From: Eledone cirrhosa
Taxonomy: Eukaryota
Length of the DNA stretch: 64,000 bases
Assembly (NCBI GenBank): GCA_964016885.1
Contig: OZ024752.1
Coordinates: 5,394,001-5,458,000, forward strand
Reading direction: 5' to 3'
Position numbers and translations under genes: made by a program. Of the stretch, positions 3,968 to 62,945 are shown in pieces. The notes below the pieces were generated by a model. That model was not told the origin of the DNA and searched no databases. It worked only from the letters and a program-made list of their open reading frames with translations. Within the stretch, counting starts at the first letter, position 1; every line of letters starts with the position of its first letter.

Positions 3968-4046
3968 AAAATGGTAAATAGACGAGGGACCTTCCCTCAC
4001 GTCTATGTCGATAAACAATCCAACTAGGATACATTCATTTTACCAC

Positions 4047-7000: not shown

Positions 7001-7592
7001 CCTTGAAACTTGCTAGTTTCATACCACCTCAACACTTAATTCCCTTACCTCTCCTTGTTGTGTCCAGGCCTCACACTAACCACTACCCTCAGTCCTTCGT
7101 ACCCACAAATTTATATTATGGAACTCAACTCCTCTTCATGTCTTTCCAGTTGGAGTGGACATGAACAATCTTAAACAAAACACCAATAGCATCAATCTCT
7201 TTGGTCCCTGAAGACCTGTTAAGGCCTTGGGAAATGTCCCTTCTTACAGACCTACCAAGTAAAACAATAAATACTTACTTTTAGGAGTGTTTGGATCATT
7301 AACATAAATATCCCTGGCAGCAGCAGAGGCTTGATCTATAAGAGATGAAATGAAAAATGAGTAAATGTACTGCTTGTGGTGCTTGATATCTGAAGGCTAC
7401 AGGGAAATGAAGTGGGCATGATCATATGGATGTGTGATGTTAATGTACATGATTGACAAAGCATGGATGAGTTGAGAGGAAAACTATGTATAAGAGGAAT
7501 CAAATGGAAGATGATCATTGAAGCAAGAAATGTTAAGAGAGACAAGAGGAAGAAAGATGCAGTAGAGAAAGACTGAGGAGGGCTGAGGAGGT
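4047..7592 (+). repeat. Local segmental duplication, copy 1 (contains an RTE insertion)
   Basis: Near-identical to 9099-10795 apart from the 4331-5903 insertion, the 7232-7469 segment and small indels; the same spurious ORFs appear twice in the track. Confidence 0.93.
4331..5903 (+). mobile_element. 5'-truncated RTE-clade LINE
   Basis: AFVDLEKAFDRV, GVHQGSVLSPLLF, YADD, LRWYGHVMRM, GRPKMTW; 3' UTR ending in a (TGA)n tail; frameshifting duplication near 4580-4610. Confidence 0.93.
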
Positions 7593-7681
7593 GAATGGAG
7601 AGCGACAAATAGACAAAAGTATTTTCCAAGCCTAAAGAAGAAATCAGTTTGGTTATTCTTCCTCTTCTTATTATTATTAGT

Positions 7682-7840: not shown

Positions 7841-8089
7841 ATATCATCATCATCATTTTACGTCCACTTTTCCCTACTTGCAAGGGTGGGACGGGAACTA
7901 ATTCTGGCTTGATTTCTACAGCTGGATGCCCTTCCTAACACCAACCTCATTTACAGTCAGTGCTGGGTGCTTTTTTTCTGTGGCGCCTACACATCCACTT
8001 TACAGTGTGGGCTGGGTGCTTTCATTGCCGTGGCAACTCCACGACCACTTTCAAGTGGAATGATAGGGATCCCAGTCCCTATCATCTCA

Positions 8090-8226
8090 TTTCTACAGCT
8101 GAGTAAACTGGAGCAATGTGAAATAAAGTGTTTTGCACAAAGAAACAACACATCACCCGGTCTGAGAATTGAACTCACAACCTTTCGATTGCAAGGCCAA
8201 TGCTCTAACCACTAAGCCATGTGCCT
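8090..8226 (-). mobile_element. tRNA-derived SINE, second family
   Basis: Reverse complement reads ggcttagtggttagagc...gagttcaattctcagacc...cactttatttcacattgctcc, similar to 11596-11715 (+). Confidence 0.65.
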
Positions 8227-10795: not shown

Positions 10796-11595
10796 GATTT
10801 GGAGAGATCTGATCTCAGCAGACTGAAGCTCAGAGAAAAGATTATGAATGTATGATATAAAGTAGAAGGAAACTGTGCTTGAAAGGTCCCATACAGCCCA
10901 TGAAAGCATGAAAAAATAGATGTAAAAAGGAACTGACCAAAGGTCAACAATCTGTTGGGGGAGAGAGGAAGAAATACAAAGACAAAGTTGCTGTCATCTT
11001 GTGGAAATGGAACATTGCTCCTACAGGTGTGGAAACTCTTCCTGCAGATTGAAGCAGATGGCTAATCCTTTGACATCAAGCTTGCGAAATTATTGAGACA
11101 AAGTGTTGTCAATGGCTCAATGGATGTTGAGTGAAGTGTGGTGCAACCACTGCTAGATCACCTCCAACACCCAGCTAATTGATTACTTGACTGACTTGTG
11201 GGAAACTCTGCTACTGGGCTTTTGGTCTCTGCTCACATCAGAACTGAGGGAACTCCAAGCTAAGTTAATTTCACATTTAGAAAAATAACATCTAAATCAT
11301 TTTCTAAATGTATGTATAAAAACGAAGAATATAGCCAAATACCTTGCATTTCTAACTGTTGATTATGCCTGTCACCCACAGAGTCAATATTGTTAATTGC
11401 TGAAAAACAAATCAATAGAATATATTAACTCAAATAGAAATGACAAAATTATGAAGAAACACTAAAGAAATTTCTTTTTAAATTAGCAACTCCTTTTTTT
11501 ATCTTTCAGACTCTTCACCTTATTTCATAATCTATTTTATAACATCTCTTCACATGGGCATGGTATACAACATGTGTTGGTATACATCAGATTGT

Positions 11596-18185: not shown

Positions 18186-21100
18186 TTTACGTCCGCTTTT
18201 TCCTGCTTGGAAGGGTGGGATGGGTCCTCTTCAGCCCAGCATCTCTCCATATGTCACGGTCCTTCGTCATCTCCTTTGTGAGCATCAACGATCTGAGGTC
18301 AGCTCTCACCACCTCCGCCCATGTTTCCCAGGTCTTCCCCTAGTGCATCTTCCTTCCACTGGGATCACCTGGCACTGCCACTTCTTCACCCAGTGGTCAT
18401 CCCTCATGCGCATCAAATGGCTATACCAACAGTCTTCTCTCCTACACACTACAGTTTATTTCTTTTATACACAGTTTCTGTCTCACTTTATTCATGCTTG
18501 GTCTTTCATGCACATTGTTACATATATAGTAACAATTCCTAGCTGTGTATACAGAGCTAACAAAATCAATGTTTGTCCTGTACATGGTAGTGGGATGGTT
18601 AAGTTGAAATATCTAGCCATATATGAAAATCCCTTAGCCATTATCAAATCATTAAAAACTTCTTTCTATGTACAGAAATCAGGTCAAAAGATGATTCAAT
18701 GATGTGCAAAAATGAGATGGAGGAGAGCTTCAACCAGATTCCCTCATAAGCAAAGAGATAAGTGGGAGAGCACACTATTAACAGAAATAGAGAGGTAGTG
18801 TATTTAAAATAGATATCTTTCTTTATTTGCCACAGGGGTGTACAAAAATGGGACATTACAAGACGTGACGGTGGGGGTTTTACATAAAATCTTTAACAAT
18901 GTTCAATAACAAACTATATAAAAATAAAACAATTGAAATCCCCTTTAGGGTGGGGTAGGGGGGCGGGCGACGCTACTGCGGGGTTGTTTTACACCTCGTG
19001 GATAGAACAACCCTCAACACCAGGAACACGTTTTGTAGGTGTTCCCGTCTTCCCTCTGTTTAATGTATTTAAGTTAGATAGTGGTTGCAACAGAATTATT
19101 AGGCCTAGACTAGTCATTGGCATTATAACAACTATTGCTATTTCAATCTACTATATCATAATCAGGACTGATTAATGAATAAAAGAATCTTTTCTATGAG
19201 AACCTCCCTTGAAGACTATCTCCATAACAAGTGACTGCGGCTACATTATTATGGCTGGTGACTTTAAGGGACATGTTAGGAAGTACCAGGATGGCTATTC
19301 TGGAGTAATTGGTGATGAATATGGCTCAAGATGGACTGGGCACTTTTTGTTGTGTCGCCATCATGACCACTTTACAGCGTGGGCTGGGCACTTTTTGTTG
19401 TGTTGCCATCACGACCACTTTACAGTGTGGGCTGGGCACTTTGTGTCAACAACAACACCACCACCACCACCACCACCACCATCACCACTGTATTACAAAG
19501 GTATTTATGTCACGGTAATTGATAAAGCTTTAAAATATGTAAAAATATACCAACCTCTTATCCGGTGGCATCTATAAATAAGAATTCCCAAAATTATTAA
19601 CAATATTACCATTGCTACAGTACAACCAATAATTAGTGTCAAATGATTTTCTGTTTTTACTGAAAATATATATAAAATAAACCAAACATCATCAAACAAG
19701 AAAAATAATTAAAGTAAGGATTATGATGAATCATTCACTAGTCATAATTTGTCTAATATTTTGCAAAGTTCAGTGGTGTATTGGTAGAGGTGCATGGTAG
19801 TGCAGCTGCACACTCCCAAAAATTGTTGTCTGAAAATTATGAATGTCTGTTAGGAGAATACACTTATGGCAAGGTTAGTATATGCATTGGTATGAGTTGG
19901 ACAATCTTTTATATGTCTCAAACCTGTATCATCTTTTCTTTAAGTCACAATCTTTTAAAATCATGTTTGAATATTTCTTTTTCTTTAACCAGTCTAGTGT
20001 CAGACTCGTCAAATTCTTGCCAGCTTGGAAAGCAAATATATGATGGTGATGATGATGATTATCTTCATAACATTGTTTCATTTTGTTACAAATTAGTTAT
20101 CTTCAGGATGAAGTGGTTGGGAGGACTCTTAAGTCCCATCAGGGATATGATAATCTCTGAAGTGCTGCTACCATAATACACTACATAAAATGGTTGGTGT
20201 TGAGAAGGGCATCAGGTCATAGAAAACTTGCCAATTATCCTTATTATTGGAACTTTCCACTGTAAACTCATTATCACAATGTCATTTCTTTCTACTTATA
20301 TTCTTGATTACAATTAATGTATCAATATAAGAAATAACTTTTTATAAACTTTTATTGAATCTTACTGAATGAATATTGTTGAAGGTCTTAAAGTTTTTAT
20401 GGTCGAATCTGTCAAAAAATTATGACAAATGTTCTGGAGACTACATGATTAAAAGTCAACATGAAATTTGCAGTTTGTTCAAATCCAAAAATAACTGGAT
20501 CTTTTGACATTTTGCATAGTGATAAATTTCAGTTTATCAACCAGAATATATTTTAATAATTATGGTCTAGACCAAGAATGAAGAAACCTTCACATGTATT
20601 CAAATTTGTAACTGCCTAATGTCAAAGTCTCTTAAATCACATATGAACAAAATCAGTTTAATCCTTAAGACTAAAACATCATCATCTTCATCATTATCAT
20701 CATTTTATGTCTGTTGTATCAATATAATAATCTTTAAGAGCATAAATTTTTAACAAGAAGACACAGTCAACTCCTGTACTTGGTATTCTTTTATTTACTA
20801 TATAGGGGGACGGATTGTCAGGATCGGTAGGGCATCAGACAATTTGGGCAATCTACAGGTGCAATCTACAGATGCAAGCTCAGAGCAGGTCTTTTCACTC
20901 GGAGTATGTTCGCCACTCTCACCCCCACCTTTCAAAAAACTGGTTTAAAAGTCACTCTCCACCCTGATTTTCCTCATCAAGGGAAACCTGTAAAAGTTAA
21001 TCAGGACTTCACCAAAGAAGAAAGTGCTTGTCTTCAATCCTTTTAAATGTGTCCACCACATGACATCATATGTCATGGCCACCACACAGATAAAAACTGC

Positions 21101-22885: not shown

Positions 22886-25033
22886 ATACATAAACACACA
22901 CACACATATATACCCTCACACACAGATATTCATATACACCCACATATATATTTTTAAAATTAACTTACCATATACTGTGATGTGGTACATGCTACCATGT
23001 ACATTAGATATGCAAATAATACTCATGTTGTCTTCCTGTATAGTTATATTAATGATAGTCAATGTACAGATAGTATTTTGACAACTAGTTATTTGACGGT
23101 TGCCAAAATATTTATCAAAGCCTGGGTCATTCAATCCATAATATACAGCAATAAGTGATCCATCTCCAGTACGCCAATCTGTAATATCTCCCCTCTTTCT
23201 TACACATTTCAATGTGAAGTTTTTATCTTCTATAGCATTTGGTGTTTCAGAACTTGGGTAAAGATTCTTCCCAGTCTCATCTAAAAACACAAATTAAGAC
23301 GAGATAAAATAAGAATTAATCCAAAATTTAAGAGAAATTTTAACAATAAATTGAAACAAGCCTAATAGTTCATATTCCATTTGTGTGAAGACAGGCAGGG
23401 CTGTGCTGTTTAGCCCATGGAAGCAGGGAAAGCAGATGCAAAGTATGTTGATGATGATGATGATGATAGTGATGATGAGCATAGTATTAGGGGGAGTGGG
23501 GTGTTATATGGAATTGACTTAGATTTTTAGTTGTTTCTTATGTTACATCACCAGTAGCAGCAGCACCACGACCCCCCCAACATCATCATCACTACTACTA
23601 CCACCACCACCAGCACCATCCACCCCCACCACATTCATAGCCATCACTACCACCATCACAACCGCCGCCGCCGTCATCACCACCACCACCACCAACACCA
23701 TCATCAGCATCACCACCAACATCATCACCATCACCATCACCACCACCATCACTGCCAACACCATCATCACCACCACCACCACCACCACCACCACCATCAT
23801 CACCATCACCACCAACATCATCACCACCACCATCACCATCACCACCACCATCACTGCCAACACCATCATCACCATCACCACCACCACCACCATCACTGCC
23901 AACACCACCATCATCATAAATAATACATAAAATAAATTATATTCAGATATAAGATAAATCTAAATGTGCTAAACATGTCACAAAAGAGATTTTATGGAGG
24001 GAAGAGTAAATGGAATGATTCTGAGCAAGAATCATGAGATACAAAATTCAAGTTCAATTTATAATGTGTCACATTAATAGATTTAATAAATGATTTTAAT
24101 GACAATATATAGAGGGCTGATAACTTATTAATATAACTGTTTCTTGTAAAAATATGCTCTTACCAATATACAATAAAATTGTGGTATTAGATAATAATCA
24201 AACTGTAATATCCTGTATCTGTGTGTAGACATACAAAATATATTGTAATACTTTATAAGATCTACAAAATCATTGTTGCTTTATAAGAGAAAGGCAACTT
24301 TCTAACAATAGGAAGTTGAGGGAACAGTGTTAGTTTTTTCAACATTGTTGCTGATATTGTGAGAAATAGCAGCCAAATCTCACCTTACTGTTTTTCAGAT
24401 CATTGTTTAAATCTAGTGACATGAAAATAATATATTAGATAAGGGTCATCTTAACTAAACTGTAATCCTTATAGGTTTGCTTCATTAGGGATGACTTAGG
24501 AATACATAACAACAAATAGGGAGAGGGAAAACAGATTTTATCAAAGAACAAATGAATAATTGAGTAGTTTCTACTGTGTTTTCGGATGAACCAATTAACT
24601 TCAACTGTAAACATTATTTTTAGTTGTTTTACTTCTTTTACATCTAAAATTGAGTTTATGCATTGAATTCTTCAAATCCAGAATTATTCAGGAATAATGT
24701 ACCTGGTGACAATCAAAAGAAGCGAGGTAGGTGTAAAAGCCAAACTCACTATCTTCAATTTGGTATTCATGCCAACCCTTATCTATGGCCATAAATCTTG
24801 GGTAATGACCAAAATACAATCGCAAATACAAGTGGCCGAAATGGGGTTCCTCTGAAGGGTCTTTGGAGTAACGTTACTCGATAGAGTGTATAGCTCAGAG
24901 ATCAGAGAGTCACTCCAGGTAGAACTGCTACTTCTCCAGATTGAGAGATCACAGCTCTGATAATATGGGCATATGGTTAGAATGTCTCAGGGAAGAATTG
25001 GTGAGCAAGAAGAAGGAGGAGAAGAAGAAGGAG

Positions 25034-25085
<52 letters not shown>

Positions 25086-27505
25086 ATGTGTTGATTTTTG
25101 ACAGCTATGGTATAAATGTCTGTAATTTCAAGCTATCTATATTGTCAGGATATTTGTTAGGGAAAAAATGTGAAATGTTATTATGTAAACATTATTTATT
25201 TCAATATAATAAAGAAATATTATTAGAAAGATGAAAACACAAATATAAATGATATAAATAATTATAATTTAGTACTTACTAAATAATGCACGTACTACAA
25301 ATACCATGGTCGCAGTCTTGTTGTGACAGGAAATGTATAAGTTAGTAGCGGAAAGAAGGGTGAAGTGTAAAATATTTGGTTTACTGGACTCCACAGATGC
25401 GTTAAACTTATTATGTACAATAGGCTTCCAATTAGGACTATTAGTTTGCACACCTCGCACCTCCCAGGATGTAATTGTCTCTGGATCATCAATAGGACAT
25501 TGGAAAATTAGGTTTTCATTTACCCTGAGAAATCTTGTACCAACTCTTGTGGTAGGAACTGAAAAAGAACAAAACAAAATATATATATATATACAATTGA
25601 TTACGTTCTTTAATTTTTCTAATGGAAGAGGAACAATTTGAAATAAATTAAAATATTATGGATTACACAGAATTAATTGGAAAATAAATGTTTTATGTAT
25701 ATTTTAAAGCTAAATACAGATATAGTTATTGAGGACTAATGGAATGGAATAAAGTATGAATGTCAGGTTGAAATCCTGCCAATATTTCACAATGGATATC
25801 GAAAATATCACATTGGTGTGAAAGACTAAAAAACTATAATGACATCTACTGATAATAGGAAACAATGTTTGTAAAATAAATGGAAATATCAGCCTGAAAG
25901 CAGACATTCGAATATTAAAGGACATACAACTAATGAACTGGGCATAATTTTGGTCAGAACTGGGCATCCCACAAGATGGTCATCCTGGTGACATAAGAAA
26001 AAAGCACCCTGTCCATCATGTAACATGGATGTGCTGGTGACACCAAAAAGGTATCCAGTCTGCCCTGTAAGATGGTTGTGCTGGTGACATGATGAAAAAG
26101 CACTAAGTCCAGCCTGTTAGATGACCTTTCTGGTGCCACAATAAAAGCACCCAGTCCACACTGTAACAGGTTTGGCCTTAGAAAGATCATCCAGATGAAG
26201 AACCAAACCAAAATACAAATACAAGACATGGTCATTTTATATAATAAACTACTGGATATTGGAGGAAACAGTGTGATATTTCACACACTCCACTTTATAC
26301 AATAAACTACTGGATATTGGAGGAAACAGTGTGATATTTCACACATTCCACCTTATACAATAAACTACTGGATATTGGAGGAAACAGTGTGATATTTCAC
26401 ACATTCCACCTTATACAATAAACTACTGGATATTGGAGGAAACAGTGTGATATTTCACACATTCCACCTCATACAATAAACTACTGGATATTGGAGGAAA
26501 CAGTGTGATATTTCACACATTCCACCTCATACAATAAACTACTGGATATTGGAGGAAACAGTGTGATATTTCACACATTCCACCTTATACAATAAACTAC
26601 TGGATGTTGGAGGAAACAGTGTGATATTTCACACATTCCACCTTATACAATAAACTACTGGATGTTGGAGGAAACAGTGTGATATTTCACACATTCCACC
26701 TTATACAATAAACTACTGGATATTGGAGGAAACAGTGTGATATTTCACACATTCCACCTTATACAATAAACTACTGGATATTGGAGGAAACAGTGCGATA
26801 TTTCACACATTCCACCTCATACAATAAACTACTGGATATTGGAGGAAACAGTGTGATATTTCACACATTCCACCTTATACAATAAACTACTGGATATTGG
26901 AGGAAACAGTGTGATATTTCACACATTCCACCTTATACAATAAACTACTGGATATTGGAGGAAACAGTGTGATATTTCACACATTCCACCTTATACAATA
27001 AACTACTGGATATTGGAGGAAACAGTGTGATATTTCACACATTCCACCTTATACAATAAACTACTGGATGTTGGAGGAAACAGTGTGATATTTCACACAT
27101 TCCACCTCATACAATAAACTACTGGATATTGGAGGAAACAGTGTGATATTTCACACATTCTACCTTATACAATAAACTACTGGATATTGGAGGAAACAAT
27201 GTGATATTTCACACACTCCACCTTATACAATAAACTACTGGATGGTGTTGTTATATGCACCATTTTCTAATTTTGTCGTGCGTAATGCTAAGAGCACTAA
27301 TTGAGGTTCTTCGCCACTTTTGAATGCCTTTTTTATTGTCTGTATATTTCTCTCAAAGTGTATAGCTCAGAGATCAGAGAGTCACTCCAGGTAGAACTGC
27401 TACTTCTCCAGATTGAGAGATCACAGCTCTGATAATATGGGCATATGGTTAGAATGTCTCAGGGAAGAATTGGTGAGCAAGAAGAAGGAGGAGAAGAAGA
27501 AGGAG

Positions 27506-27572
<67 letters not shown>

Positions 27573-27609
27573 CATACATATATATATATACATACATATA
27601 TATATATAT

Positions 27610-27654
<45 letters not shown>

Positions 27655-30600
27655 CATATATATATATATGTACATACATATATATATATATATATATGTA
27701 CATATATATATATATATACATATATATACATACATATATATATATATATATACATACATACAAATACATACATATATATATATACATACATACATATATG
27801 GTGGCTGCCAACTCGTTTTCGAGTACGGCCACTACTTTATATTCATGTAGGAGAACCCATACCGATGCGCTGAACGTGTGTGACTTTTTAGTCCAGCCAG
27901 CGACTTGAAAACTCTGGTACAAACATTACACTTGTGATAATCATTGACACATAGTGCTGGTCCCATGTGACAACAAGTGCAGAGAGATCTCCAGATATAA
28001 AGCAATGCCTGTGCCATGAAGCTTTTATAGTGAGCAAAGGCAGTGCACAAGGCCAGTCCCACTCTCTTGACCAAGATGATATTTACCAAAAAGAAGAACA
28101 AGTCAACATCATTTGATACCATCAGGGTTGCAGGTGTTATATCAGAGTTTTCCTTCTCCTAGAATTCTGCCTTGACAAAGGCTAAGGGATCATCTCTCCC
28201 GGTGATTTTGGATGGCCATTGACTCTTAAGAGCTCCTTTGCCCTTTGACAGGTTTTGTTTTTTAGTCCTGCAGGATGTCCAAAGTCACCCTCCTCACCAA
28301 GAAACCTTGGTGGGGTTGCCAGTTTAGTCGCCAACAACCCGACCATGAGACAGGTTGTACTGGGATACATGTTACCAGTAGCACCAACTGGTGACCTGAC
28401 ATATATATATATATACATACATACAAATACATACATATATATATATACATACATACATATACATACATACATATACACACAAACGTACATATACACACAA
28501 CCATATATACACACAAACATATATATACATATATATAAACATACATAATATATACATACATATATATACACATACATATATATAAACATACATATATACA
28601 CATACATATATATAAACATACATATATACAAAGATACATAATATATACATACATATATATAAACATACATATATATATACACATACATATATATAAACAT
28701 ACATATATACACATACATATATATACACATACATATATATAAACATACATATATACACATACATATATACAAACATACATATATATACATACATACATAT
28801 ATATACATACACATACATATATATACATAAACACACACACACATATATACCCTCACACACAGATATTCATATACACCCACATATATATTTTTAAAATTAA
28901 CTTACCATATACTGTGATGTGGTACATGCTACCATGTACACTAGATCTGCAAATAATACTCATGTTGTCTTCCTGTATAGTTATATTAATGATAGTCAAT
29001 GTACAGATAGTATTTTGACAACTAGTTATTTGACGGTTGCCAAAATATTTATCATTGCCTATGTCATTCAATCCAATATATACAGCAATAAGTGATCCAT
29101 CTCCAGTACGCCATATTGTAATATCTCCCCTCTTTCTTACACATTTCAATGTGAAGTTTTTATCTTCTATAGCATTTGGTGTTTCAGAACTTGGGTAAAG
29201 ATTCTTCCCAGTCTCATCTAAAAACACAAATTAAGACGAGATAAAATAAGAATTAATCCAAAATTTAAGAGAAATTTTAACAATAAATTGAAACAAGCCT
29301 AATAGTTCATATTCCATTTGTGTGAAGACAGGCAGGGCTGTGCTGTTTAGCCCATGGAAGCAGGGAAAGCAGATGCAAAGTATGTTGATGATGATGATGA
29401 TGATAGTGATGATGAGCATAGTATTAGGGGGAGTGGGGTGTTATATGGAATTGACTTAGATTTTTAGTTGTTTCTTATGTTACATCACCAGTAGCAGCAG
29501 CACCACGACCCCCCCAACATCATCATCACTACTACTACCACCACCACCAGCACCATCGACCCCCACCACATTCATAGCCATCACTACCACCATCACAACC
29601 GCCGCCGCCGTCATCACCACCACCACCACCAACACCATCATCAGCATCACCACCAACATCATCACCATCACCACCACCATCACTGCCAACACCATCATCA
29701 CCACCACCACCACCACCACCACCACCAACACCATCATCACCATCACCACCAACATCATCACCACCACCATCACCATCACCACCACCATCACTGCCAACAC
29801 CACCACCACCACCACCACCATCACTGCCAACACCACCATCATCATAAATAATACAAAAAATAAATTATATTCAGATATAAGATAAATCTAAATGTGCTAA
29901 ACATGTCACAAAAGAGATTTTATGGAGGGAAGAGTAAATGGAATGATTCTGAGCAAGAATCATGAGATACAAAATTCAAGTTCAATTTATAATGTGTCAC
30001 ATTAATAGATTTAATAAATGATTTTAATGACAATATATAGAGGGCTGATAACTTATTAATATAACTGTTTCTTGTAAAAATATGCTCTTACCAATATACA
30101 ATAAAATTGTGGTATTAGATAATAATCAAACTGTAATATCCTGTATCTGTGTGTAGACATACAAAATATATTGTAATACTTTATAAGATCTACAAAATCA
30201 TTGTTGCTTTATAAGAGAAAGGCAACTTTCTAACAATAGGAAGTTGAGGGAACAGTGTTAGTTTTTTCAACATTGTTGCTGATATTGTGAGAAATAGCAG
30301 CCAAATCTCACCTTACTGTTTTTCAGATCATTGTTTAAATCTAGTGACATGAAAATAATATATTAGATAAGGGTCATCTTAACTAAACTGTAATCCTTAT
30401 AGGTTTGCTTCATTAGGGATGACTTAGGAATACATAACAACAAATAGGGAGAGGGAAAACAGATTTTATCAAAGAACAAATGAATAATTGAGTAGTTTCT
30501 ACTGTGTTTTCGGATGAACCAATTAACTTCAACTGTAAACATTATTTTTAGTTGTTTTACTTCTTTTACATCTAAAATTGAGTTTATGCATTGAATTCTT

Positions 30601-30951
30601 CAAATCCAGAATTATTCAGGAATAATGTACCTGGTGACAATCAAAAGAAGCGAGGTAGGTGTAAAAGCCAAACTCATTATCTTCAATTTGGTATTCATGC
30701 CAACCCTTATAAATCTTGGGTAATGACCAAAATACAATCGCAAATACAAGTGGCCGAAATGGGGTTCCTCTGAAGGGTCTTTGGAGTAACGTTACTCGAT
30801 AGAGTGTATAGCTCAGAGATCAGAGAGTCACTCCAGGTAGAACTGCTACTTCTCCAGATTGAGAGATCACAGCTCTGATAATATGGGCATATGGTTAGAA
30901 TGTCTCAGGGAAGAATTGGTGAGCAAGAAGAAGGAGGAGAAGAAGAAGGAG

Positions 30952-31007
<56 letters not shown>

Positions 31008-34000
31008 ATGTGTTGATTTTTGACAGCTATGGTATAAATGTCTGTAATTTCAAGCTATCTATATTGTCAGGATATTTGTTAGGGAAAAAATGTGAAATGT
31101 TATTATGTAAACATTATTTATTTCAATATAATAAAGAAATATTATTAGAAAGATGAAAACACAAATATAAATGATATAAATAATTATAATTTAGTACTTA
31201 CTAAATAATGCACGTACTACAAATTCCATGGTCGCAGTCTTGTTGTGACAGGAAATGTATGAGTTAGTAGCGGAAAGAAGGGTGAAGTGTAAAATATTTG
31301 GTTTACTGGACTCCACAGATGCGTTAAACTTATTATGTACAATAGGCTTCCAATTAGGACTATTAGTTTGCACACCTCGCACCTCCCAGGATGTAATTGT
31401 CTCTGGATCATCAATAGGACATTGGAAAATTAGGTTTTCATTTACCCTGAGAAATCTTGTACCAACTCTTGTGGTAGGAACTGAAAAAGAACAAAACAAA
31501 ATATATATATATATACAATTGATTACGTTCTTTAATTTTTCTAATGGAAGAGGAACAATTTGAAATAAATTAAAATATTATGGATTACACAGAATTAATT
31601 GGAAAATAAATGTTTTATGTATATTTTAAAGCTAAATACAGATATAGTTATTGAGGACTAATGGAATGGAATAAAGTATGAATGTCAGGTTGAAATCCTG
31701 CCAATATTTCACAATGGATATCGAAAATATCACATTGGTGTGAAAGACTAAAAAACTATAATGACATCTACTGATAATAGGAAACAATGTTTGTAAAATA
31801 AATGGAAATATCAGCCTGGAAGCAGACATTCGAATATTAAAGGTCATACAACTGCTGAACTGGGCATAATTTTGGTCAGAACTGGGCATCCCACAAGATG
31901 GTCATCCTGGTGACATAAGAAAAAAGCACCCTGTCCATCATGTAACATGGATGTGCTGGTGACACCAAAAAGGTATCCAGTCTGCCCTGTAAGATGGTTG
32001 TGCTGGTGACATGATGAAAAAGCACTAAGTCCAGCCTGTTAGATGACCTTTCTGGTGCCACAATAAAAGCACCCAGTCCACACTGTAACAGGTTTGGCCT
32101 TAGAAAGATCATCCAGATGAAGAACCAAACCAAAATACAAATACAAGACATGGTCATTTTATATAATAAACTACTGGATATTGGAGGAAACAGTGTGATA
32201 TTTCACACACTCCACTTTATACAATAAACTACTGGATATTGGAGGAAACAGTGTGATATTTCACACACTCCACCTTATACAATAAACTACTGGATATTGG
32301 AGGAAACAGTGTGATATTTCACACATTCCACCTTATACAATAAACTACTGGATGTTGGAGGAAACAGTGTGATATTTCACACATTCCACCTTATACAATA
32401 AACTACTGGATATTGGAGGAAACAGTGTGATATTTCACACATTCCACCTTATACAATAAACTACTGGATATTGGAGGAAACAGTGTGATATTTCACACAC
32501 TCCACCTTATACAATAAACTACTGGATATTGGAGGAAACAGTGTGATATTTCACACATTCCACCTTATACAATAAACTACTGGATGTTGGAGGAAACAGT
32601 GCGATATTTCACACATTCCACCTTATACAATAAACTACTGGATGTTGGAGGAAACAGTGTGATATTTCACACATTCCACCTTATACAATAAACTACTGGA
32701 TGTTGGAGGAAACAGTGTGATATTTCACACATTCCACCTTATACAATAAACTACTGAATGTTGGAGGAAGCAGTGTGATATTTCACACACTCCACCTTAT
32801 ACAATAAACTACTGGATGTTGGAGGAAACAGTGCGATATTTCACACATTCCACCTTATACAATAAACTACTGGATATTGGAGGAAACAGTGTGATATTTC
32901 ACACACTCCACCTCATACAATAAACTACTGGATATTGGAGGAAACAATGTGATATTTCACACACTCCACCTTATACAATAAACTACTGGATATTGGAGGA
33001 AACAGTGTGATATTTCACACATTCCACCTTATGTGATATTTCACACATTCCACCTTATACAATAAACTACTGGATATTGGAGGAAACAGTGTGATATTTC
33101 ACACACTCCACCTTATACAATAAACTACTGGATGTTGGAGGAAACAGTGTGATATTTCACACACTCCACCTTATACAATAAACTACTGGATATTGGAGGA
33201 AACAGTGTGATATTTCACACATTCCACCTTATACAATAAACTACTGGATATTGGAGGAAACAGTGTGATATTTCACACACTCCACCTTATACAATAAACT
33301 ACTGGATGTTGGAGGAAACAGTGTGATATTTCACACACTCCACCTTATACAATAAACTACTGGATATTGGAGGAAACAGTGTGATATTTCACACACTCCA
33401 CCTTATACAATAAACTACTGGATATTGGAGGAAACAGTGTGATATTTCACACACTCCACCTTATACAATAAACTACTGGATGTTGGAGGAAACAGTGTGA
33501 TATTTCACACATTCCACCTTATACAATAAACTACTGGATATTGGAGGAAACAGTGTGATATTTCACACACTCCACCTTATACAATAAACTACTGGATATT
33601 GGAGGAAACAGTGTGATATTTCACACATTCCACCTCATACAATAAACTACTGGATGTTGGAGGAAACAATGTGATATTTCACACATTCCACCTTATACAA
33701 TAAACTACTGGATATTGGAGGAAACAGTGTGATATTTCACACATTCCACCTTATACAATAAACTACTGGATGTTGGAGGAAACAGTGTGATATTTCACAC
33801 ATTCCACCTTATACAATAAACTACTGGATATTGGAGGAAACAGTGTGATATTTCACACATTCCACCTTATACAATAAACTACTGGATATTGGAGGAAACA
33901 GTGTGATATTTCACACATTCCACCTTATACAATAAACTACTGGATGTTGGAGGAAACAGTGTGATATTTCACACATTCCACCTTATACAATAAACTACTG

Positions 34001-35193
34001 GATATTGGAGGAAACAGTGTGATATTTCACACACTCCACCTTATACAATAAACTACTGGATATTGGAGGAAACAGTGTGATATTTCACACATTCCACCTC
34101 ATACAATAAACTACTGGATATTGGAGGAAACAATGTGATATTTCACACATTCCACCTTATACAATAAACTACTGGATATTGGAGGAAACAGTGTGATATT
34201 TCACACATTCCACCTTATACAATAAACTACTGGATGTTGGAGGAAACAGTGTGATATTTCACACATTCCACCTTATACAATAAACTACTGGATATTGGAG
34301 GAAACAGTGTGATATTTCACACATTCCACCTTATACAATAAACTACTGGATATTGGAGGAAACAATGTGATATTTCACACATTCCACCTTATACAATAAA
34401 CTACTGGATATTGGAGGAAACAGTGTGATATTTCACACATTCCACCTTATACAATAAACTACTGGATGTTGGAGGAAACAGTGTGATATTTCACACATTC
34501 CACCTTATACAATAAACTACTGGATATTGGAGGAAACAGTGTGATATTTCACACATTCCACCTTATACAATAAACTACTGGATATTGGAGGAAACAGTGT
34601 GATATTTCACACATTCCACCTCATACAATAAACTACTGGATATTGGAGGAAACAGTGCGATATTTCACACACTCCACCTTATACAATAAACTACTGGATA
34701 TTGGAGGAAACAGTGTGATAATTCACACATTCCACCTTATACAATAAACTACTGGATGTTGGAGGAAACAGTGTGATATTTCACACATTCCACCTTATAT
34801 AATAAACTACTGGATGTTGGAGGAAACAGTGTGATATTTCACACATTCCACCTTATACAATAAACTACTGGATATTGGAGGAAACAGTGTGATATTTCAC
34901 ACACTCCACCTTATACAATAAACTACTGGATGGTGTTGTTATATGCACCATTTTCTAATTTTGTCGTGCGTAATGCTAAGAGCACTAATTGAGGTTCTTC
35001 GCCACTTTTGAATGCCTTTTTTATTGTCTGTATATTTCTCTCAAAGTGTATAGCTCAGAGATCAGAGAGTCACTCCAGGTAGAACTGCTACTTCTCCAGA
35101 TTGAGAGATCACAGCTCTGATAATATGGGCATATGGTTAGAATGTCTCAGGGAAGAATTGGTGAGCAAGAAGAAGGAGGAGAAGAAGAAGGAG

Positions 35194-35274
<81 letters not shown>

Positions 35275-35311
35275 CATACATATATATATATACATACATA
35301 TATATATATAT

Positions 35312-35356
<45 letters not shown>

Positions 35357-38300
35357 CATATATATATATATGTACATACATATATATATATATATATATG
35401 TACATATATATATATATATACATATATATACATACATATATATATATATACATACATACAAATACATACATATATATATATACATACATACATATATGGT
35501 GGCTGCCAACTCGTTTTCGAGTACGGCCACTACTTTATATTCATGTAGGAGAACCCATACCGATGCGCTGAACGTGTGTGACTTTTTAGTCCAGCCAGCG
35601 ACTTGAAAACTCTGGTACAAACATTACACTTGTGATAATCATTGACACATAGTGCTGGTCCCATGTGACAACAAGTGCAGAGAGATCTCCAGATATAAAG
35701 CAATGCCTGTGCCATGAAGCTTTTATAGTGAGCAAAGGCAGTGCACAAGGCCAGTCCCACTCTCTTGACCAAGATGATATTTACCAAAAAGAAGAACAAG
35801 TCAACATCATTTGATACCATCAGGGTTGCAGGTGTTATATCAGAGTTTTCCTTCTCCTAGAATTCTGCCTTGACAAAGGCTAAGGGATCATCTCTCCCGG
35901 TGATTTTGGATGGCCATTGACTCTTAAGAGCTCCTTTGCCCTTTGACAGGTTTTGTTTTTTAGTCCTGCAGGATGTCCAAAGTCACCCTCCTCACCAAGA
36001 AACCTTGGTGGGGTTGCCAGTTTAGTCGCCAACAACCCGACCATGAGACAGGTTGTACTGGGATACATGTTACCAGTAGCACCAACTGGTGACCTGACAT
36101 ATATATATATATACATACATACAAATACATACATATATATATATACATACATACATATACATACATACATATACACACAAACGTACATATACACACAACC
36201 ATATATACACACAAACATATATATACATATATATAAACATACATAATATATACATACATATATATACACATACATATATATAAACATACATATATACACA
36301 TACATATATATAAACATACATATATACAAAGATACATAATATATACATACATATATATAAACATACATATATATATACACATACATATATATAAACATAC
36401 ATATATACACATACATATATATACACATACATATATATAAACATACATATATACACATACATATATACAAACATACATATATATACATACATACATATAT
36501 ATACATACACATACATATATATACATAAACACACACACACATATATACCCTCACACACAGATATTCATATACACCCACATATATATTTTTAAAATTAACT
36601 TACCATATACTGTGATGTTGTACATGCTACTATGTACACTAGATATGCAAATAATACTCATGTTGTCTTCCTGTATAGTTATATTAATGATAGTCAATGT
36701 ACAGATAGTATTTTGACAACTAGTTATTTGACGGTTGCCAAAATATTTATCAAAGCCTGGGTCATTCAATCCATAATATACAGCAATAAGTGATCCATCT
36801 CCAGTAAACCAATATGTATAATCTCCCCTCTTTCTTACACATTTCAATGTGAAGTTTTTATCTTCTATAGCATTTGGTGTTTCAGAACTTGGGTAAAGAT
36901 TCTTCCCAGTCTCATCTAAAAACACAAATTAAGACGAGATAAAATAAGAATTAATCCAAAATTTAAGAGAAATTTTAACAATAAATTGAAACAAGCCTAA
37001 TAGTTCATATTCCATTTGTGTGAAGACAGGCAGGGCTGTGCTGTTTAGCCCATGGAAGCAGGGAAAGCAGATGCAAAGTATGTTGATGATGATGATGATG
37101 ATAGTGATGATGAGCATAGTATTAGGGGGAGTGGGGTGTTATATGGAATTGACTTAGATTTTTAGTTGTTTCTTATGTTACATCACCAGTAGCAGCAGCA
37201 CCACGACCCCCCCAACATCATCATCACTACTACTACCACCACCACCAGCACCATCCACCCCCACCACATTCATAGCCATCACTACCACCATCACAACCGC
37301 CGCCGCCGTCATCACCACCACCACCACCAACACCATCATCAGCATCACCACCAACATCATCACCATCACCATCACCACCACCATCACTGCCAACACCATC
37401 ATCACCACCACCACCACCACCACCACCACCATCATCACCATCACCACCAACATCATCACCACCACCATCACCATCACCACCACCATCACTGCCAACACCA
37501 TCATCACCATCACCACCACCACCACCATCACTGCCAACACCACCATCATCATAAATAATACATAAAATAAATTATATTCAGATATAAGATAAATCTAAAT
37601 GTGCTAAACATGTCACAAAAGAGATTTTATGGAGGGAAGAGTAAATGGAATGATTCTGAGCAAGAATCATGAGATACAAAATTCAAGTTCAATTTATAAT
37701 GTGTCACATTAATAGATTTAATAAATGATTTTAATGACAATATATAGAGGGCTGATAACTTATTAATATAACTGTTTCTTGTAAAAATATGCTCTTACCA
37801 ATATACAATAAAATTGTGGTATTAGATAATAATCAAACTGTAATATCCTGTATCTGTGTGTAGACATACAAAATATATTGTAATACTTTATAAGATCTAC
37901 AAAATCATTGTTGCTTTATAAGAGAAAGGCAACTTTCTAACAATAGGAAGTTGAGGGAACAGTGTTAGTTTTTTCAACATTGTTGCTGATATTGTGAGAA
38001 ATAGCAGCCAAATCTCACCTTACTGTTTTTCAGATCATTGTTTAAATCTAGTGACATGAAAATAATATATTAGATAAGGGTCATCTTAACTAAACTGTAA
38101 TCCTTATAGGTTTGCTTCATTAGGGATGACTTAGGAATACATAACAACAAATAGGGAGAGGGAAAACAGATTTTATCAAAGAACAAATGAATAATTGAGT
38201 AGTTTCTACTGTGTTTTCGGATGAACCAATTAACTTCAACTGTAAACATTATTTTTAGTTGTTTTACTTCTTTTACATCTAAAATTGAGTTTATGCATTG

Positions 38301-38668
38301 AATTCTTCAAATCCAGAATTATTCAGGAATAATGTACCTGGTGACAATCAAAAGAAGCGAGGTAGGTGTAAAAGCCAAACTCACTATCTTCAATTTGGTA
38401 TTCATGCCAACCCTTATCTATGGCCATAAATCTTGGGTAATGACCAAAATACAATCGCAAATACAAGTGGCCGAAATGGGGTTCCTCTGAAGGGTCTTTG
38501 GAGTAACGTTACTCGATAGAGTGTATAGCTCAGAGATCAGAGAGTCACTCCAGGTAGAACTGCTACTTCTCCAGATTGAGAGATCACAGCTCTGATAATA
38601 TGGGCATATGGTTAGAATGTCTCAGGGAAGAATTGGTGAGCAAGAAGAAGGAGGAGAAGAAGAAGGAG

Positions 38669-38722
<54 letters not shown>

Positions 38723-41700
38723 ATGTGTTGATTTTTGACAGCTATGGTATAAATGTCTGTAATTTCAAGCTATCTATATTGTCAGGATATTTGTTAGGGA
38801 AAAAATGTGAAATGTTATTATGTAAACATTATTTATTTCAATATAATAAAGAAATATTATTAGAAAGATGAAAACACAAATATAAATGATATAAATAATT
38901 ATAATTTAGTACTTACTAAATAATGCACGTACTAGAAATACCATGGTCGCAGTCTTGTTGTGACAGGAAATGTGAAAGTATCCAGCGGAAAAAAGGGTGA
39001 AGTGTAAAATATTTGGTTTACTGGACTCCACAGATGCGTTAAACTTATTATGTACAATAGGCGTCCAATTAGGACTTTTAGTGTACACACCTCCCACCTT
39101 CCAGGATGTAATTGTCTCTGGATCATCAATAGGACATTGGAAAATTAGGTTTTCATTTACCCTGAGAAATCTTGTACCAACTCTTGTGGTAGGAACTGAA
39201 AAAGAACAAAACAAAATATATATATATATACAATTGATTACGTTCTTTAATTTTTCTAATGGAAGAGGAACAATTTGAAATAAATTAAAATATTATGGAT
39301 TACACAGAATTAATTGGAAAATAAATGTTTTATGTATATTTTAAAGCTAAATACAGATATAGTTATTGAGGACTAATGGAATGGAATAAAGTATGAATGT
39401 CAGGTTGAAATCCTGCCAATATTTCACAATGGATATCGAAAATATCACATTGGTGTGAAAGACTAAAAAACTATAATGACATCTACTGATAATAGGAAAC
39501 AATGTTTGTAAAATAAATGGAAATATCAGCCTGGAAGCAGACATTCGAATATTAAAGGTCATACAACTGCTGAACTGGGCATAATTTTGGTCAGAACTGG
39601 GCATCCCACAAGATGGTCATCCTGGTGACATAAGAAAAAAGCACCCTGTCCATCATGTAACATGGATGTGCTGGTGACACCAAAAAGGTATCCAGTCTGC
39701 CCTGTAAGATGGTTGTGCTGGTGACATGATGAAAAAGCACTAAGTCCAGCCTGTTAGATGACCTTTCTGGTGCCACAATAAAAGCACCCAGTCCACACTG
39801 TAACAGGTTTGGCCTTAGAAAGATCATCCAGATGAAGAACCAAACCAAAATACAAATACAAGACATGGTCATTTTATATAATAAACTACTGGATATTGGA
39901 GGAAACAGTGTGATATTTCACACACTCCACTTTATACAATAAACTACTGGATATTGGAGGAAACAGTGTGATATTTCACACACTCCACCTTATACAATAA
40001 ACTACTGGATATTGGAGGAAACAGTGTGATATTTCACACATTCCACCTTATACAATAAACTACTGGATGTTGGAGGAAACAGTGTGATATTTCACACATT
40101 CCACCTTATACAATAAACTACTGGATATTGGAGGAAACAGTGTGATATTTCACACATTCCACCTTATACAATAAACTACTGGATATTGGAGGAAACAGTG
40201 TGATATTTCACACACTCCACCTTATACAATAAACTACTGGATATTGGAGGAAACAGTGTGATATTTCACACATTCCACCTTATACAATAAACTACTGGAT
40301 GTTGGAGGAAACAGTGCGATATTTCACACATTCCACCTTATACAATAAACTACTGGATGTTGGAGGAAACAGTGTGATATTTCACACATTCCACCTTATA
40401 CAATAAACTACTGGATGTTGGAGGAAACAGTGTGATATTTCACACATTCCACCTTATACAATAAACTACTGGATGTTGGAGGAAGCAGTGTGATATTTCA
40501 CACACTCCACCTTATACAATAAACTACTGGATGTTGGAGGAAACAGTGTGATATTTCACACATTCCACCTCATACAATAAACTACTGGATGTTGGAGGAA
40601 ACAGTGTGATATTTCACACATTCCACCTTATACAATAAACTACTGGATGTTGGAGGAAACAGTGTGATATTTCACACATTCCACCTTATACAATAAACTA
40701 CTGGATGGTGTTGTTATATGCACCATTTTGTAATTTTGTCGTGCGTAATGCTAAGAGCACTAATTGAGGTTCTTCGCCACTTTTGAATGCCTTTTTTATT
40801 GTCTGTATATTTCTCTCAACCATGCCATTTGCTTGATGATAATGTGGGCTTGTTTTCGTGTGATAAAAATGCCAATTTTTTGCAAACTTTTTAAATTCAG
40901 CCGAATTGAACTCTGGACCGTTGTCACTGACAACTGTTTGTGGAATGCCGAATTTGGCAAAAGTTTCTTTTATTATTTTGATTACAGTTTTTGACTGGCA
41001 ATCATTTATTTCGTGTAAATCAAAAAATCTTGTTGTATAGTCAATGATTGTGACATACGAATTTCCAGACAGGTGAAATATGTCTGTACCTACTTTGGTC
41101 CATGGTGTAGTAGGTATTTCATGATTTATTAGTGGTTCGGCTGGTTGTTGATTTTTCTAATCGATGCAGTATGAGCATGTGTTAATCATGTCTTTGATTT
41201 GAGCGTTAATGCCGGGCCAGTATATACATTCCTTGGCTCGCTCTGTGCATTTTTCAATACCCATGTGTCCGGTATGTATTTCCTGTAGAGCTTCTCTACG
41301 TAATGACTTAGGTACAATGATTCTTGGACCTTTTAGAACGAGGCCATTGACGATCGATATTTCATCACGAACAGAGACGAATGGTTTAATGTTTGTTGGT
41401 ATTTTGTCTTTTGGGGGCCATTCTGTTCTTGTATATGTGATGAGTGTCTGTAGTGACGAGTCGTGTGCAGTGGCTTCTTTGTACTCGTTTAATTTAGTGT
41501 CGGTTATGGGGTAATTTTTTATTACTGCATGTATGTGCGATTTCATATCTTCGTCTGATACTTCTGGAGTATTTTGTTCAAGGTATGCACGTGATAGAGT
41601 ATCTGCAACAACTGATTCTTTACCAGGTATGTAGTTTAGGTCAAAATCGTATCTTTGTAATTGCTAGTAGAAATCTTTGGATTCTGGGGGGGCATTTAGT

Positions 41701-44700
41701 GATCGATTTTTTTGAATATTTGCTTCAACGGTTTATGGTCGTTTTCGATTCTGAAATGAGTTCCGTATATAAAGTGATGAAATTTCTTGCATGCAAAAAC
41801 CAAACTGAGAGCTTCGCTCTCTATCGGACAGTAGTTTTGTTCCGCTTGAGTTGTTGCACGAGATGTAAACGAAACAGGTAGCCATCTTTCGTTGTGTTTC
41901 TGCTCAAGTATAGCTCCGAGCCCATGCTTACTAGCATCTGTAGTTATTTTTACTGGTAGATCTGGATCATAAAATTGTAGCACTGGTTTTCTGGTAATCA
42001 TTTCTTTTAGCTTTTTTATTGCTTCGATTTGAGGTTTGTCGAGTGACCATAACGTGTCACTCTGTAGAAGCTGGCGTAATGGTGCTGTAACTTCGGAGTA
42101 GTTTGGTAAAAATTTACATAGGTAATTTGTCATACCTAGGAATCTTTGTAATTCTTTTTTGCCTGTAGGTAGTGGCATGTGAATGATTGCTTGCACTTTG
42201 GTTGGATCTTGTTTTATCCCTTCGCTGGTTAATAGATGCCCAAGCTACGTTATTTGTGATGCATTGAAGATACACTTTGATTTATTTAACTTTAATCCGT
42301 GCTTTCGGATTCGTTCGAAAACTTGTTGTAATCTATTTGTGTGTTCTTCTAAAGTGCTGGACCAGATTATAATGTCATCCTGTGAATTTCTTGCTCCTTC
42401 TATGCCATCTATTATTTTTGCGATTTCTTTTTGGAAAACTTCACTGGCGCTGTGAATTCCATAGGGCAGTCGTGTGAAGCGATATCTTCCAAAAGGTGTG
42501 TTGAACGTTAACAGGTGGGAGCTTTCTTCGTCAACTGGAATTTGCCAGTATCCATTAGATGCATCGAGTTTCGAGAAATATTTTGGTTTATGCATTTGTG
42601 CAAAAATGTCCTCCGCTGTAGGGAGTTTTAAATGTTGCCTTTTTATGGCTTTGTTTAGATTCTTGGGGTCCAAACAGAGTCGGAGTTTTCCGTTGGCTTT
42701 TTCAACGATGACTAGGGAATTTACCCAGTCTGTAGGTTCACTAACGGGTTTTATGATTCCTAATTGTCATTTTTTTTAGTTCTTTTTTGAGTTTTTCTTT
42801 TATAGAAAAAGGAACCGATCTTGGTGGATGAATTACAGGAGTTATTTGTGGATCCACTGTGATATGATGTGTTATTGGCAGAGTGCCGATTTCTCCGAAA
42901 CAGTCTTCATATTTTTCTGTTATGTCGTTTGCGTTCGACGAATTTATTTTTAAAATTCTCTGAATTAAGTTCAGATCTTGTGCTGTCTTTGCATCTATAA
43001 CTGCGTGCGAGTTTGTTTTTGCAACAATGAATTTTGTTTGTTTTGATACTTTTTTGTATTTAACGACTGCTGTGCATTTTCCTAGCACTTTTATAGCTGT
43101 GTTATTGTAGGCTGATAATCGAGTTGAGGTTTTTTGCAGTTGGGGTTTTGGAATAATATTTTTATATTCTCTGAATGGCAGTACGGTCACGTCTGCTCCA
43201 GTATCAATTTTGAATGTTACATTCGAGTTATTCACTTTTAGTTCGACCGTCCAAATGTCTTTTGGAGTCTTGAACTTTTCGATTTTATGCACGCGGGATT
43301 TATTTAAAGTGATCACTTTGAGTGCATGTATATCGTCATCTGATTCATCGTCGGAATGTGTCTCCACTTTATGTACAAATTTTCTTGATTTGCACATTTT
43401 TGCATAGTGTCCTTTTTTTCTTGCATTTTTCACATATCTTGTGGAATGCTGGGCACTTATTTCTTTGGTGATTGTAACCACAATAGTGACAGTTAGTGAC
43501 GTATGTTGACTTGGCGCTTGAAATTTCGCGCGCTTTCTATCACTTCCGCCTTGCCCGTTTTGACGTCTCGATTGCATATGGCGAGTTATCTGTGTTATGG
43601 CGCCTTTTCCGCTTGTCCACATGTGAAGAATTTGTGTCTCAGGAAAGTTATGTTTTTTCTGGGTTCACAATATGCAGCGAATTTTTCGATTACTGTTTGA
43701 AGGTTCATTTCTTCGTCGGGTGAATCGAAATCCAGAGTAGAATGGATGTCTCGGCCTTTGGAACTGATGCAAGTTAAAAACATTGAAGTTTTTACTTTGT
43801 CTGGCTTTATGTCACATTCTGTTGCTATCAAAAAGAGATTGAATTCTTTTTTCCACTTTTTCCATGCTGCGGCTAGATTTTCTTGATTAAAATCTAGGTC
43901 TTTTGGATGCGGTAGATTTTCCATTTCGTCTTCCAAGTATGATTTCAACTTCTTTTTTCTTTTCGTTTCTGTAGGATGGGTTCTTTTAGTATTCTGACAC
44001 CATGTTGTTGTTATATAAATATATATAAGTTGTGTATGAAAGGAAATAGTGAGTACTTAGTATGAAAGAGCAAGAACGTGAGAGAGACTGAAAAGACGTG
44101 TAAACAATACGATATACTTTATTATACTGTGTCTATACAAGGTGTCTCCTCGGGCAGGAGATTTCCTTATTGTCTCTGTATCAAGGGAGATAATGGGCGA
44201 CGTTAGTTGGTCTTGTCTATGATGATGCTTAACATGAACAGATGGTGGGGGAAACAGTGTGATATTTCACACATTCCACCTTATACAATAAACTACTGGA
44301 TGTTGGAGGAAACAGTGTGATATTTCACACATTTCACCTTATACAATAAACTACTGGATGTTGGAGGAAACAGTGTGATATTTCACACATTCCACCTTAT
44401 ACAATAAACTACTGGATGTTGGAGGAAACAGTGTGATATTTCACACATTCCACCTTATACAATAAACTACTGGATATTGGAGGAAACAGTGTGATATTTC
44501 ACACATTCCACCTTATACAATAAACTACTGGATATTGGAGGAAACAGTGTGATATTTCACACATTCCACCTTATACAATAAACTACTGGATATTGGAGGA
44601 AACAGTGTGATATTTCACACATTCCACCTTATACAATAAACTACTGGATGTTGGAGGAAACAGTGTGATATTTCTCACATTCCACCTTATACAATAAATT

Positions 44701-62846: not shown

Positions 62847-62945
<99 letters not shown>

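Follow-up and report, generated by a model that had tools for sequence, protein, structure and literature searches.

Introduction

In the SIRP, CD33-related Siglec and CD2/SLAM receptors, selection acting on the CFG face of a distal V-like immunoglobulin (Ig) domain is combined with a conserved stalk, tyrosine signalling, and gain and loss of genes. For the bat CEACAMs, excerpts of PMC5594555 describe a distal domain whose CFG face is under selection, with one N domain per gene. Alr1 and Alr2 of Hydractinia possess an Ig tip, a transmembrane helix and tyrosine motifs (passages of PMC9546547 and PMC8282982), and Alr2 is described as being under selection on the C/C' side and as exchanging exons with neighbouring copies (passages of PMC8282982). 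Here we analyse a window of 64,000 nucleotides from the 3.0-Gb genome of Eledone cirrhosa (C12:5394001-5458000, contig OZ024752.1; unmarked coordinates count from the window start). Its minus strand is predicted to carry one gene, encoding a signal peptide, three copies of a pair of Ig domains (D1-D2), a transmembrane helix and a tail with tyrosine motifs. The gene model was derived from DNA and homology. Of seven sequencing runs listed, four contain this stretch; all are from a single study, and no RNA run is among the four.

This predicted architecture, and the selected face described below, resemble those of Alr. However, Alr has no B-F cysteines in D1 and contains an Fn3-like region (excerpts of PMC9546547), whereas the Ig core is intact here, the homologues show Ig profiles only, and no extra exon was found between D2 and the transmembrane exon. 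Allelic diversity and homophilic binding have been shown for Alr, whereas the window gene is known from the sequence of one genome. The family's likeness to CEACAM-type receptors lies in a distal V-like domain selected on its CFG face, a conserved stalk, predicted tyrosine signalling and gene gain and loss; the difference is that two domains are variable here and that the pair is repeated within the gene. Homology to CEACAM or SIRP was not detected, the search yielding five weak matches, none of which covered the D2 part alone as CEACAM or SIRP. In Dscam1, the chelicerate sDscam and the clustered protocadherins, shared constant exons likewise follow variable exons that are arranged in tandem and compatible in phase, but the window gene has no per-domain exon arrays, no leader for each cassette and no FN3 or cadherin domains; it has three units and an extreme ratio of non-synonymous to synonymous rates (dN/dS). 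Molluscan FREPs and amphioxus VCBPs are invertebrate proteins with two tandem diversified N-terminal Ig domains, as set out in parts of PMC11999971 and PMC13428168; they carry a fibrinogen or chitin-binding domain, whereas the window gene has neither and is predicted to have a transmembrane exon and tail. By analogy, its product may function like CEACAM, SIRP or Hydractinia Alr, while belonging to none of these families.

The evolutionary signature is thus a familiar one, and the family appears to be undescribed. Eight locus identifiers of the family were absent from the main texts searched (supplements, possibly with expression tables, lay outside the search), and topical literature searches, judged from listings and abstract openings and with most subscription papers outside their scope, returned no paper on it. 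By term counts, a 2025 review of the invertebrate Ig superfamily does not mention octopus, squid or cephalopods (PMC11999971), and the parts covered of a 2026 review mention cephalopods for haematopoiesis only (PMC13428168). No variable recognition receptor of cephalopods was found in the literature searched, the parts covered of both reviews included. The gene is a tangible candidate: about 25 residues of a predicted binding face can be named, the stalk supplies a natural control, and laboratory and aquaculture species have orthologues, so that recognition of pathogens or non-self by octopuses becomes directly testable.

Results and Discussion

Exon and intron divergence among the three units

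The region from about 22.4 to 40.7 kb holds three near-identical units, and in each of them the minus strand has a pair of open exons. We name these exons D1 and D2 (A and B in an initial annotation of the window) and number the units 1 to 3, unit 3 being closest to the leader exon. All six exons are in phase 1/1 with canonical AG/GT ends, D1 measuring 279 nt and D2 312 nt, and are free of indels and stop codons. The initial annotation had compared four pairs by eye, and its counts were exact: 11 nt in 6 codons for B1/B2, 8 nt in 6 codons for B1/B3, 2 nt in 2 codons for A1/A2 and 14 nt in 11 codons for A1/A3. The two pairs absent from it differ at 16 nt in 9 codons and at 16 nt in 12 codons. 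Its statement that no codon carries a silent change only was borne out in all six pairwise comparisons, every one of the 22 variable codons replacing a residue; when pathways within multi-hit codons are averaged, each pair could contain between 0 and 1.3 synonymous steps. Among the 173 invariant codons (111 synonymous sites) there is no silent change.

Exon divergence also exceeds that of the introns, as had been claimed. While 33 of 591 exon columns vary, only 6 of 1923 intron columns do once 804 tandem-repeat columns are excluded (18-fold, Fisher p=7e-16); counting these columns as well brings the intron figure to 21 of 2727 (p=1e-12). The introns are hence not as divergent as the exons, and no overlooked silent-only codon came to light. 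When the 33 changes are placed uniformly, about 7 silent-only codons are expected, and none at all was obtained in 0.02-0.06% of 5000 simulations per setting.

Paralogues, selection tests and stalk control

The genome holds at least seven D2, at least six D1 and at least four leader exons, all on C12. Two further genes retain a transmembrane exon. In P1 (C12:9.11-9.23 Mb) the order is leader, D2, D1, D2, D1, D2, D3, transmembrane exon, and P2 (C12:39.25-39.29 Mb) has a complete layout of leader, D1-D8 and transmembrane exon, with a tyrosine-motif tail. The stalk D3-D8 is thus deleted in the window gene, reduced to D3 in P1 and fully present in P2.

Counting changes as a tree-free lower bound gave 24 at 460 non-synonymous sites against 0 at 125 synonymous sites in the window copies (p=0.003), 65/460 against 2/125 when P1 was added (p=8e-6), and 103/450 against 7/120 with P2 as well (p=4e-6). 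Codon models were run with purpose-written code, not codeml. Whole-domain omega was 3.4 for D2 (7 copies) and 2.75 for D1 (6 copies), both above 1 (p=0.007 and 0.005), and comparison of site models M2a and M1a gave likelihood-ratio statistics of 61.6 (D2) and 40.2 (D1). Only 2 of the 29 variable codon columns in the seven D2 copies are purely silent, and position 34 holds five residues among the seven.

The contrast with non-coding DNA extends to the paralogues. Between unit 3 and the two complete P1 units, D1 differs by 11.8 and 12.5% and D2 by 7.1 and 6.1%, against 0-3.2% in seven intron bins. The stalk serves as a control: between P1 and P2, D3 differs by 3.1% (9 codons, 2 of them silent) and the transmembrane exon by 3.8%, with 1.3-4.8% in three introns, whereas D2 differs by 8.0% and D1 by 20.5%. 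The stalk domain D3 diverges at the intron rate only. In other octopuses, too, variability is raised at positions that have at least three states here (p=0.0007 for D2, 0.004 for D1). Among four Octopus proteins, five of the six pairs show their lowest conservation in D1.

Domain fold and the variable face

AlphaFold2 returned confident V-like Ig folds for both domains, with predicted local distance difference test scores of 92.5 and 94.6, and Foldseek matched the tip-domain models to T-cell receptor V-beta, antibody V, TREM-1 and CD84. The Ig core is kept, C25/W35/C89 being invariant in 22 aligned D2 rows and C20/W31/C77 in 18 D1 rows. Judged by these models, both domains form the V-like sandwich with its B-strand Cys, C-strand Trp and F-strand Cys. 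None of four window domains reached the Pfam Ig cut-off, the sole weak match being to 'ig' (E=0.031); full-length homologues match Pfam Ig profiles through the stalk. Profile comparison detected no similarity between D1 and D2.

Where do the replacements lie on this fold? The outward face was assigned from DSSP strings and residue parity rather than from coordinates. In the window copies of D2, 7 of 13 outward GFCC' positions vary against 0 of 33 other strand positions (p=3e-5), and in those of D1, 7 of 17 outward positions against 1 of 37 others (p=7e-4). With all copies included the figures are 9/13 against 2/33 for D2 and 14/17 against 11/37 for D1. The variable residues alternate along strands C, C', F and G, plus A' in D1, so that in both V-like domains the predicted folds place the changes outward, on the A'GFCC' face. 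These positions are also variable in the two paralogues on C12 and in other octopuses. Diversifying selection very probably acts on this predicted binding face. The proposal of the initial annotation, diversifying selection on a recognition receptor, thus finds support in dN/dS, the contrast of exon and intron, the clustering on one face, the stalk control and the receptor architecture.

Could the pattern arise through no selection at all, by a targeted mutator, a local hotspot or errors in the assembly consensus? Many of the changes are adjacent doublets, which multi-nucleotide mutation can yield, and such mutation can bias codon tests. D1 contains two codon-straddling pairs of adjacent changes in each of two comparisons. 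The adjacent pairs of D2, on the other hand, never straddle a codon boundary and mostly occupy positions 1 and 2; the silent sites of the same exons stay at the intron rate; and the changes alternate along strands on a single face. The window exons, moreover, have kept their reading frame, and variation at the same positions is seen in other species and in paralogues at distances of 3.7 and 34 Mb. We therefore regard this explanation as extremely improbable. Consensus error and uniform hypermutation of exons in particular are largely refuted by the one-face clustering, the intron-rate silent sites and the recurrence in paralogues and species.

At two of the variable sites, position 99 of D2 and position 44 of D1, an N-glycosylation sequon is present in some copies and absent from others.

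Gene conversion and unequal exchange

Of 2798 non-coding sites, 2 distinguish units 2 and 3 (upper 95% bound 0.26%), as against 32 of 591 exon sites, a 76-fold excess, and several of their codons have changed two or three times. With such an excess and such codons, mutation alone would require implausibly high rates. Different parts of the units also tell different genealogies. With P1 and P2 as outgroups, shared derived sites unite units 2 and 3 upstream of D1, units 1 and 2 at four D1 sites, and units 1 and 3 in the D1-D2 intron and in mid-D2. The four-gamete test fails for 57 of 136 informative site pairs in D2 and 36 of 210 in D1, and identical codons recur between window copies and paralogue copies.

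Taken together, the conflicting genealogies and the contrast between units 2 and 3 argue that gene conversion or unequal exchange is probably at work alongside selection. Either the introns have been homogenised while selection protects patches of the exons, or the units were assembled from alleles that had already diverged. The initial interpretation thus stands as regards selection and is refined as regards the source of the differences, for which new mutation after duplication is unlikely to suffice. The 58-bp minisatellite of this locus may promote unequal exchanges; repeat-bordered duplications are also described, in parts of PMC5103432, for the invertebrate immune family Sp185/333.

Copies of this minisatellite mark the 5' border of every repeated unit and occupy the leader-D1 intron of all four family loci (in the window, arrays at 39874-40707 and 44241-48165).

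Octopod relatives and gene history

The 31 candidates from a search with D2 included two proteins of Octopus bimaculoides, 58% and 54% identical. Homology covers the leader, D1, D2 and transmembrane exons alike, placing the gene in the octopod Ig-superfamily family of O. bimaculoides LOC106874069 and LOC106869178. Profile searching yielded 122 proteins at E<=0.001, 21 of them at E<=1e-30. Among 22 proteins named, the close relatives come from O. bimaculoides, O. sinensis, O. vulgaris and Argonauta hians, all 'uncharacterised', and a relative in the cuttlefish Acanthosepion pharaonis, also 'uncharacterised', matches the stalk only. LOC106874069, LOC106869178, O. sinensis LOC115212116 and Argonauta GAB1598814 share leader, D1, D2, transmembrane segment and a tyrosine-rich tail with the window gene. 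The nine closest proteins examined have one D1-D2 pair, mostly followed by a stalk, whereas in the window gene there are three such pairs and the stalk is absent. D1-D2-D1-like or repeated layouts occur in a distant octopod subfamily (P0053, P0065, P0084), which counts against full novelty of the layout. Short or transcript-derived forms did not appear in the protein searches, either at near-length to D2 (0 of 215 candidates) or, for D1, in longer proteins (0 of 1480).

P2 retains the ancestral layout. The junction that removes D4-D8 is common to the window gene and P1, and the window gene lacks D3 as well. Since the spacers between units are assembled from different pieces in the window gene and in P1, the tip has multiplied twice independently. 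From an ancestral layout of leader, D1-D8, transmembrane exon and tail, both genes have lost D4-D8 through a common deletion and the window gene D3 too, after which the tip multiplied in each gene with breakpoints of its own. Such repeated, independent multiplication of a two-domain hypervariable tip within one gene is unusual, and with introns nearly free of differences the two sister genes offer an unusually clean case of selection against homogenisation within a single gene.

The window gene and P1 differ by 0.6-1.8% in four distal non-coding blocks, and their similarity ends near the gene borders. We considered whether P1 could be an unmerged haplotype of the window gene, in which case allelic divergence would amount to 24-26% of D1 residues; this is less likely, as collinearity stops at the gene borders (one P1 flank was compared over 11 kb only).

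The first unit of P1 (C12:9211469-9222658) has lost its D1 exon, so that the encoded protein would begin with D2. A truncated locus, P3 (C12:39184477-39190621), consists of a promoter-like block, a leader and a 58-bp array, with no D1 or D2; it lies downstream of P2, about 65 kb from the transmembrane exon of that gene. On C1 (171631673-171634503) there is a distant relative with a compact D1-D2-D1-like layout, which matches O. bimaculoides LOC106876419 and is a possible slow-evolving outgroup.

Possible function and use of the units

What would such a protein recognise? On balance we lean towards a receptor of immune type, in which three different tips stand in series on a single chain and bind a foreign partner that changes fast. 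The protein would be a type I membrane receptor of the octopod family. Its outward face would bind a partner, most likely a protein of a pathogen or parasite; the receptor would either detect this protein or be exploited by it, and the tail would signal through phosphotyrosines. Conversion and unequal crossing-over among units, paralogues and alleles would keep the introns near-identical and shuffle short patches of variants, with selection retaining differing binding faces despite the homogenisation. Three different tips joined in one gene would fix several specificities on one haplotype.

Several points weigh against this reading, or against parts of it. The gene model on which it stands comes from DNA and homology, and the sole predicted tail tyrosine that fits the consensus of an immunoreceptor tyrosine-based inhibitory motif (ITIM) sits in a predicted exon outside the window. 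A null that confines the changes to 22 random codons leaves no silent-only codon in 9-12% of cases, which is non-significant; replacement-only change is therefore by itself weaker evidence than the structural clustering and the contrast between exons and introns. With 6-7 sequences that recombine, site models inflate omega, and since recombination and small samples have this effect on codon models, the tree-free lower bound was also used. The parity assigned to strands C' and G leans on conservation and is partly circular. Repeated mutation at hypervariable codons could also produce incompatible sites and thereby explain part of the four-gamete failures. Finally, one Octopus pair, P0002/P0031, shows lower conservation in D4 and D5 than in D1.

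The same face might instead serve as a tag of self and non-self among conspecifics, as in Alr, D1-D2 tips binding matching tips on another cell and rare specificities being favoured. The outline architecture is that of Alr (Ig tip, transmembrane helix, tyrosine tail), as are the selected face and the shuffling of exons with neighbours, and variability of both D1 and D2 would suit an antiparallel contact from tip to tip. Sequence features of Alr are nevertheless absent, the Cys-Trp-Cys core being intact and the Fn3-like region missing; loss of the stalk and a shifting number of domains would fit a strict homophilic geometry poorly; and the solitary octopuses are not known to have a tissue-fusion system from which the selection could arise. 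We consider a tag of this kind unlikely. Homodimer prediction for the D1-D2 tip of O. bimaculoides P0002 (residues 22-216, two copies, alignment not used) scored 0.00 and is evidence neither way.

Fertilisation is another setting in which proteins of this type evolve. VERL and zonadhesin are tandem-repeat fertilisation receptors with concerted evolution, and such proteins typically show tandem domain repeats, homogenised introns and positive selection. All three traits match the window gene, which could thus encode a gamete or mate recognition protein under sexual conflict. However, a tail with tyrosine motifs, gain and loss of paralogues and the divergence of paralogues within one genome suit immune-type receptors better, and a role in fertilisation seems quite improbable.

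A separate question, compatible with either ligand hypothesis, is how the units are used. By default, the six exons would be spliced in series into one six-domain chain. They could also be alternative cassettes, the leader being spliced to one D1-D2 pair (or to a mixed D1 and D2) and then to the transmembrane exon, yielding several short receptors. Any skip would be in frame, the six exons having one phase and identical splice flanks, and the face changes in the membrane-proximal units are easier to explain if each unit can be the tip; members of the family in O. bimaculoides, furthermore, are heavily annotated with isoforms. Yet the isoform tails compared there differ in their cytoplasmic part. 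The exons of the window gene alternate D1, D2, D1, D2 rather than forming grouped arrays like those of Dscam1, and their identical flanks provide no obvious selector. The single leader leaves no promoter choice of the sDscam or protocadherin kind, and sDscam-type cassettes with leaders of their own were rejected on this ground. Serial splicing, in turn, would give the window gene and P1 alike a total of six Ig domains, near the ancestral eight. Alternative cassettes thus seem rather unlikely.

It is tempting to speculate further on an octopod combinatorial system, in which several hypervariable tips of one gene, reshuffled by conversion among units, paralogues and alleles, are combined by splicing into faces that differ per animal or per cell and tell self from non-self. 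We judge this distinctly unlikely; if true, cephalopods would have their first molecular candidate for allorecognition or for immune recognition of a variable kind. The self-recognition behaviour of octopus skin and suckers is an example of what such recognition could serve.

Other features of the locus

The features of the locus are collected in Table 1. The leader was called signal-peptide-like by resemblance to homologues, not by a predictor. Searching for the tail with tblastn set for short queries returned microsatellite noise for the most part. The small phase-1 tail exons were found with a conservation filter across the three full genes, in which all three exons are conserved, and are predicted to encode one ITIM-like motif and one YxN motif.

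Table 1. Predicted exons, spacers, repeats and candidate control region of the window gene
Feature	Position	Strand	Remarks
Candidate promoter or non-coding first exon	50834..51296		96-99% conserved block that precedes each of the four leader exons
Leader exon with ATG, signal-peptide-like	48867..48936	-	Ends in phase 1; sole copy in window, at least 4 copies in genome; resembles homologue N-termini
58-bp arrays in leader-D1 intron	39874..48165		Flank decayed Ty3/gypsy-like element (40708-44240)
D1 exon, unit 3	38917..39195	-	V-like Ig domain; nearest leader
D2 exon, unit 3	36604..36915	-	V-like Ig domain
Spacer, units 2/3	34932..36098		0 differences from other spacer over 875 non-repeat positions
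58-bp minisatellite array	32159..34931		About 48 copies; 5' of unit 2 D1
D1 exon, unit 2	31202..31480	-	
D2 exon, unit 2	28906..29217	-	
Spacer, units 1/2	27244..28400		Junction of retrotransposon end and D1-D2 intron piece, not found in P1 or P2
58-bp minisatellite array	26237..27243		17 copies; 5' of D1 at unit border
D1 exon, unit 1	25280..25558	-	
D2 exon, unit 1	22969..23280	-	Nearest membrane
Transmembrane exon	19555..19659	-	GTTGGT donor identical in both paralogues
Predicted 57-nt cytoplasmic exon	11343..11399	-	From DNA; one copy per full gene (three genes)
Predicted 57-nt cytoplasmic exon with YVN motif	7279..7335	-	Copies: 1 here, 4 in P1, 3 in P2
Predicted 36-nt tail exon	3.2 kb before window start		Two tyrosines, one ITIM-like

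The region of the cytoplasmic tail (3582-11000 in the window, C12:9.12-9.16 Mb and 39.22-39.25 Mb in the paralogues) is itself made of tandem duplications, and the number of tyrosine-motif exons therefore varies between paralogues. The promoter-like block (49.3-52 kb) has an inverted copy downstream of the gene, at C12:5380079-5383048, and the same holds for P1 (9118061-9120184).

The element at 40708-44240 we take to be Ty3/gypsy-like from protease, reverse transcriptase and integrase motifs in the translations of its open reading frames; an element of this kind is inserted into the 58-bp array both in the window gene and in P1. Inside and upstream of the gene lie three further elements with long open frames (1-3300, 13470-16045 and 59797-63006), presumably, from their motifs, one Ty3/gypsy-like and two long interspersed element (LINE)-like copies. 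At 54098-54778, a 66-bp repeat in 10.3 copies of 98% identity forms an in-frame 22-residue repeat that ends a LINE-like reading frame.

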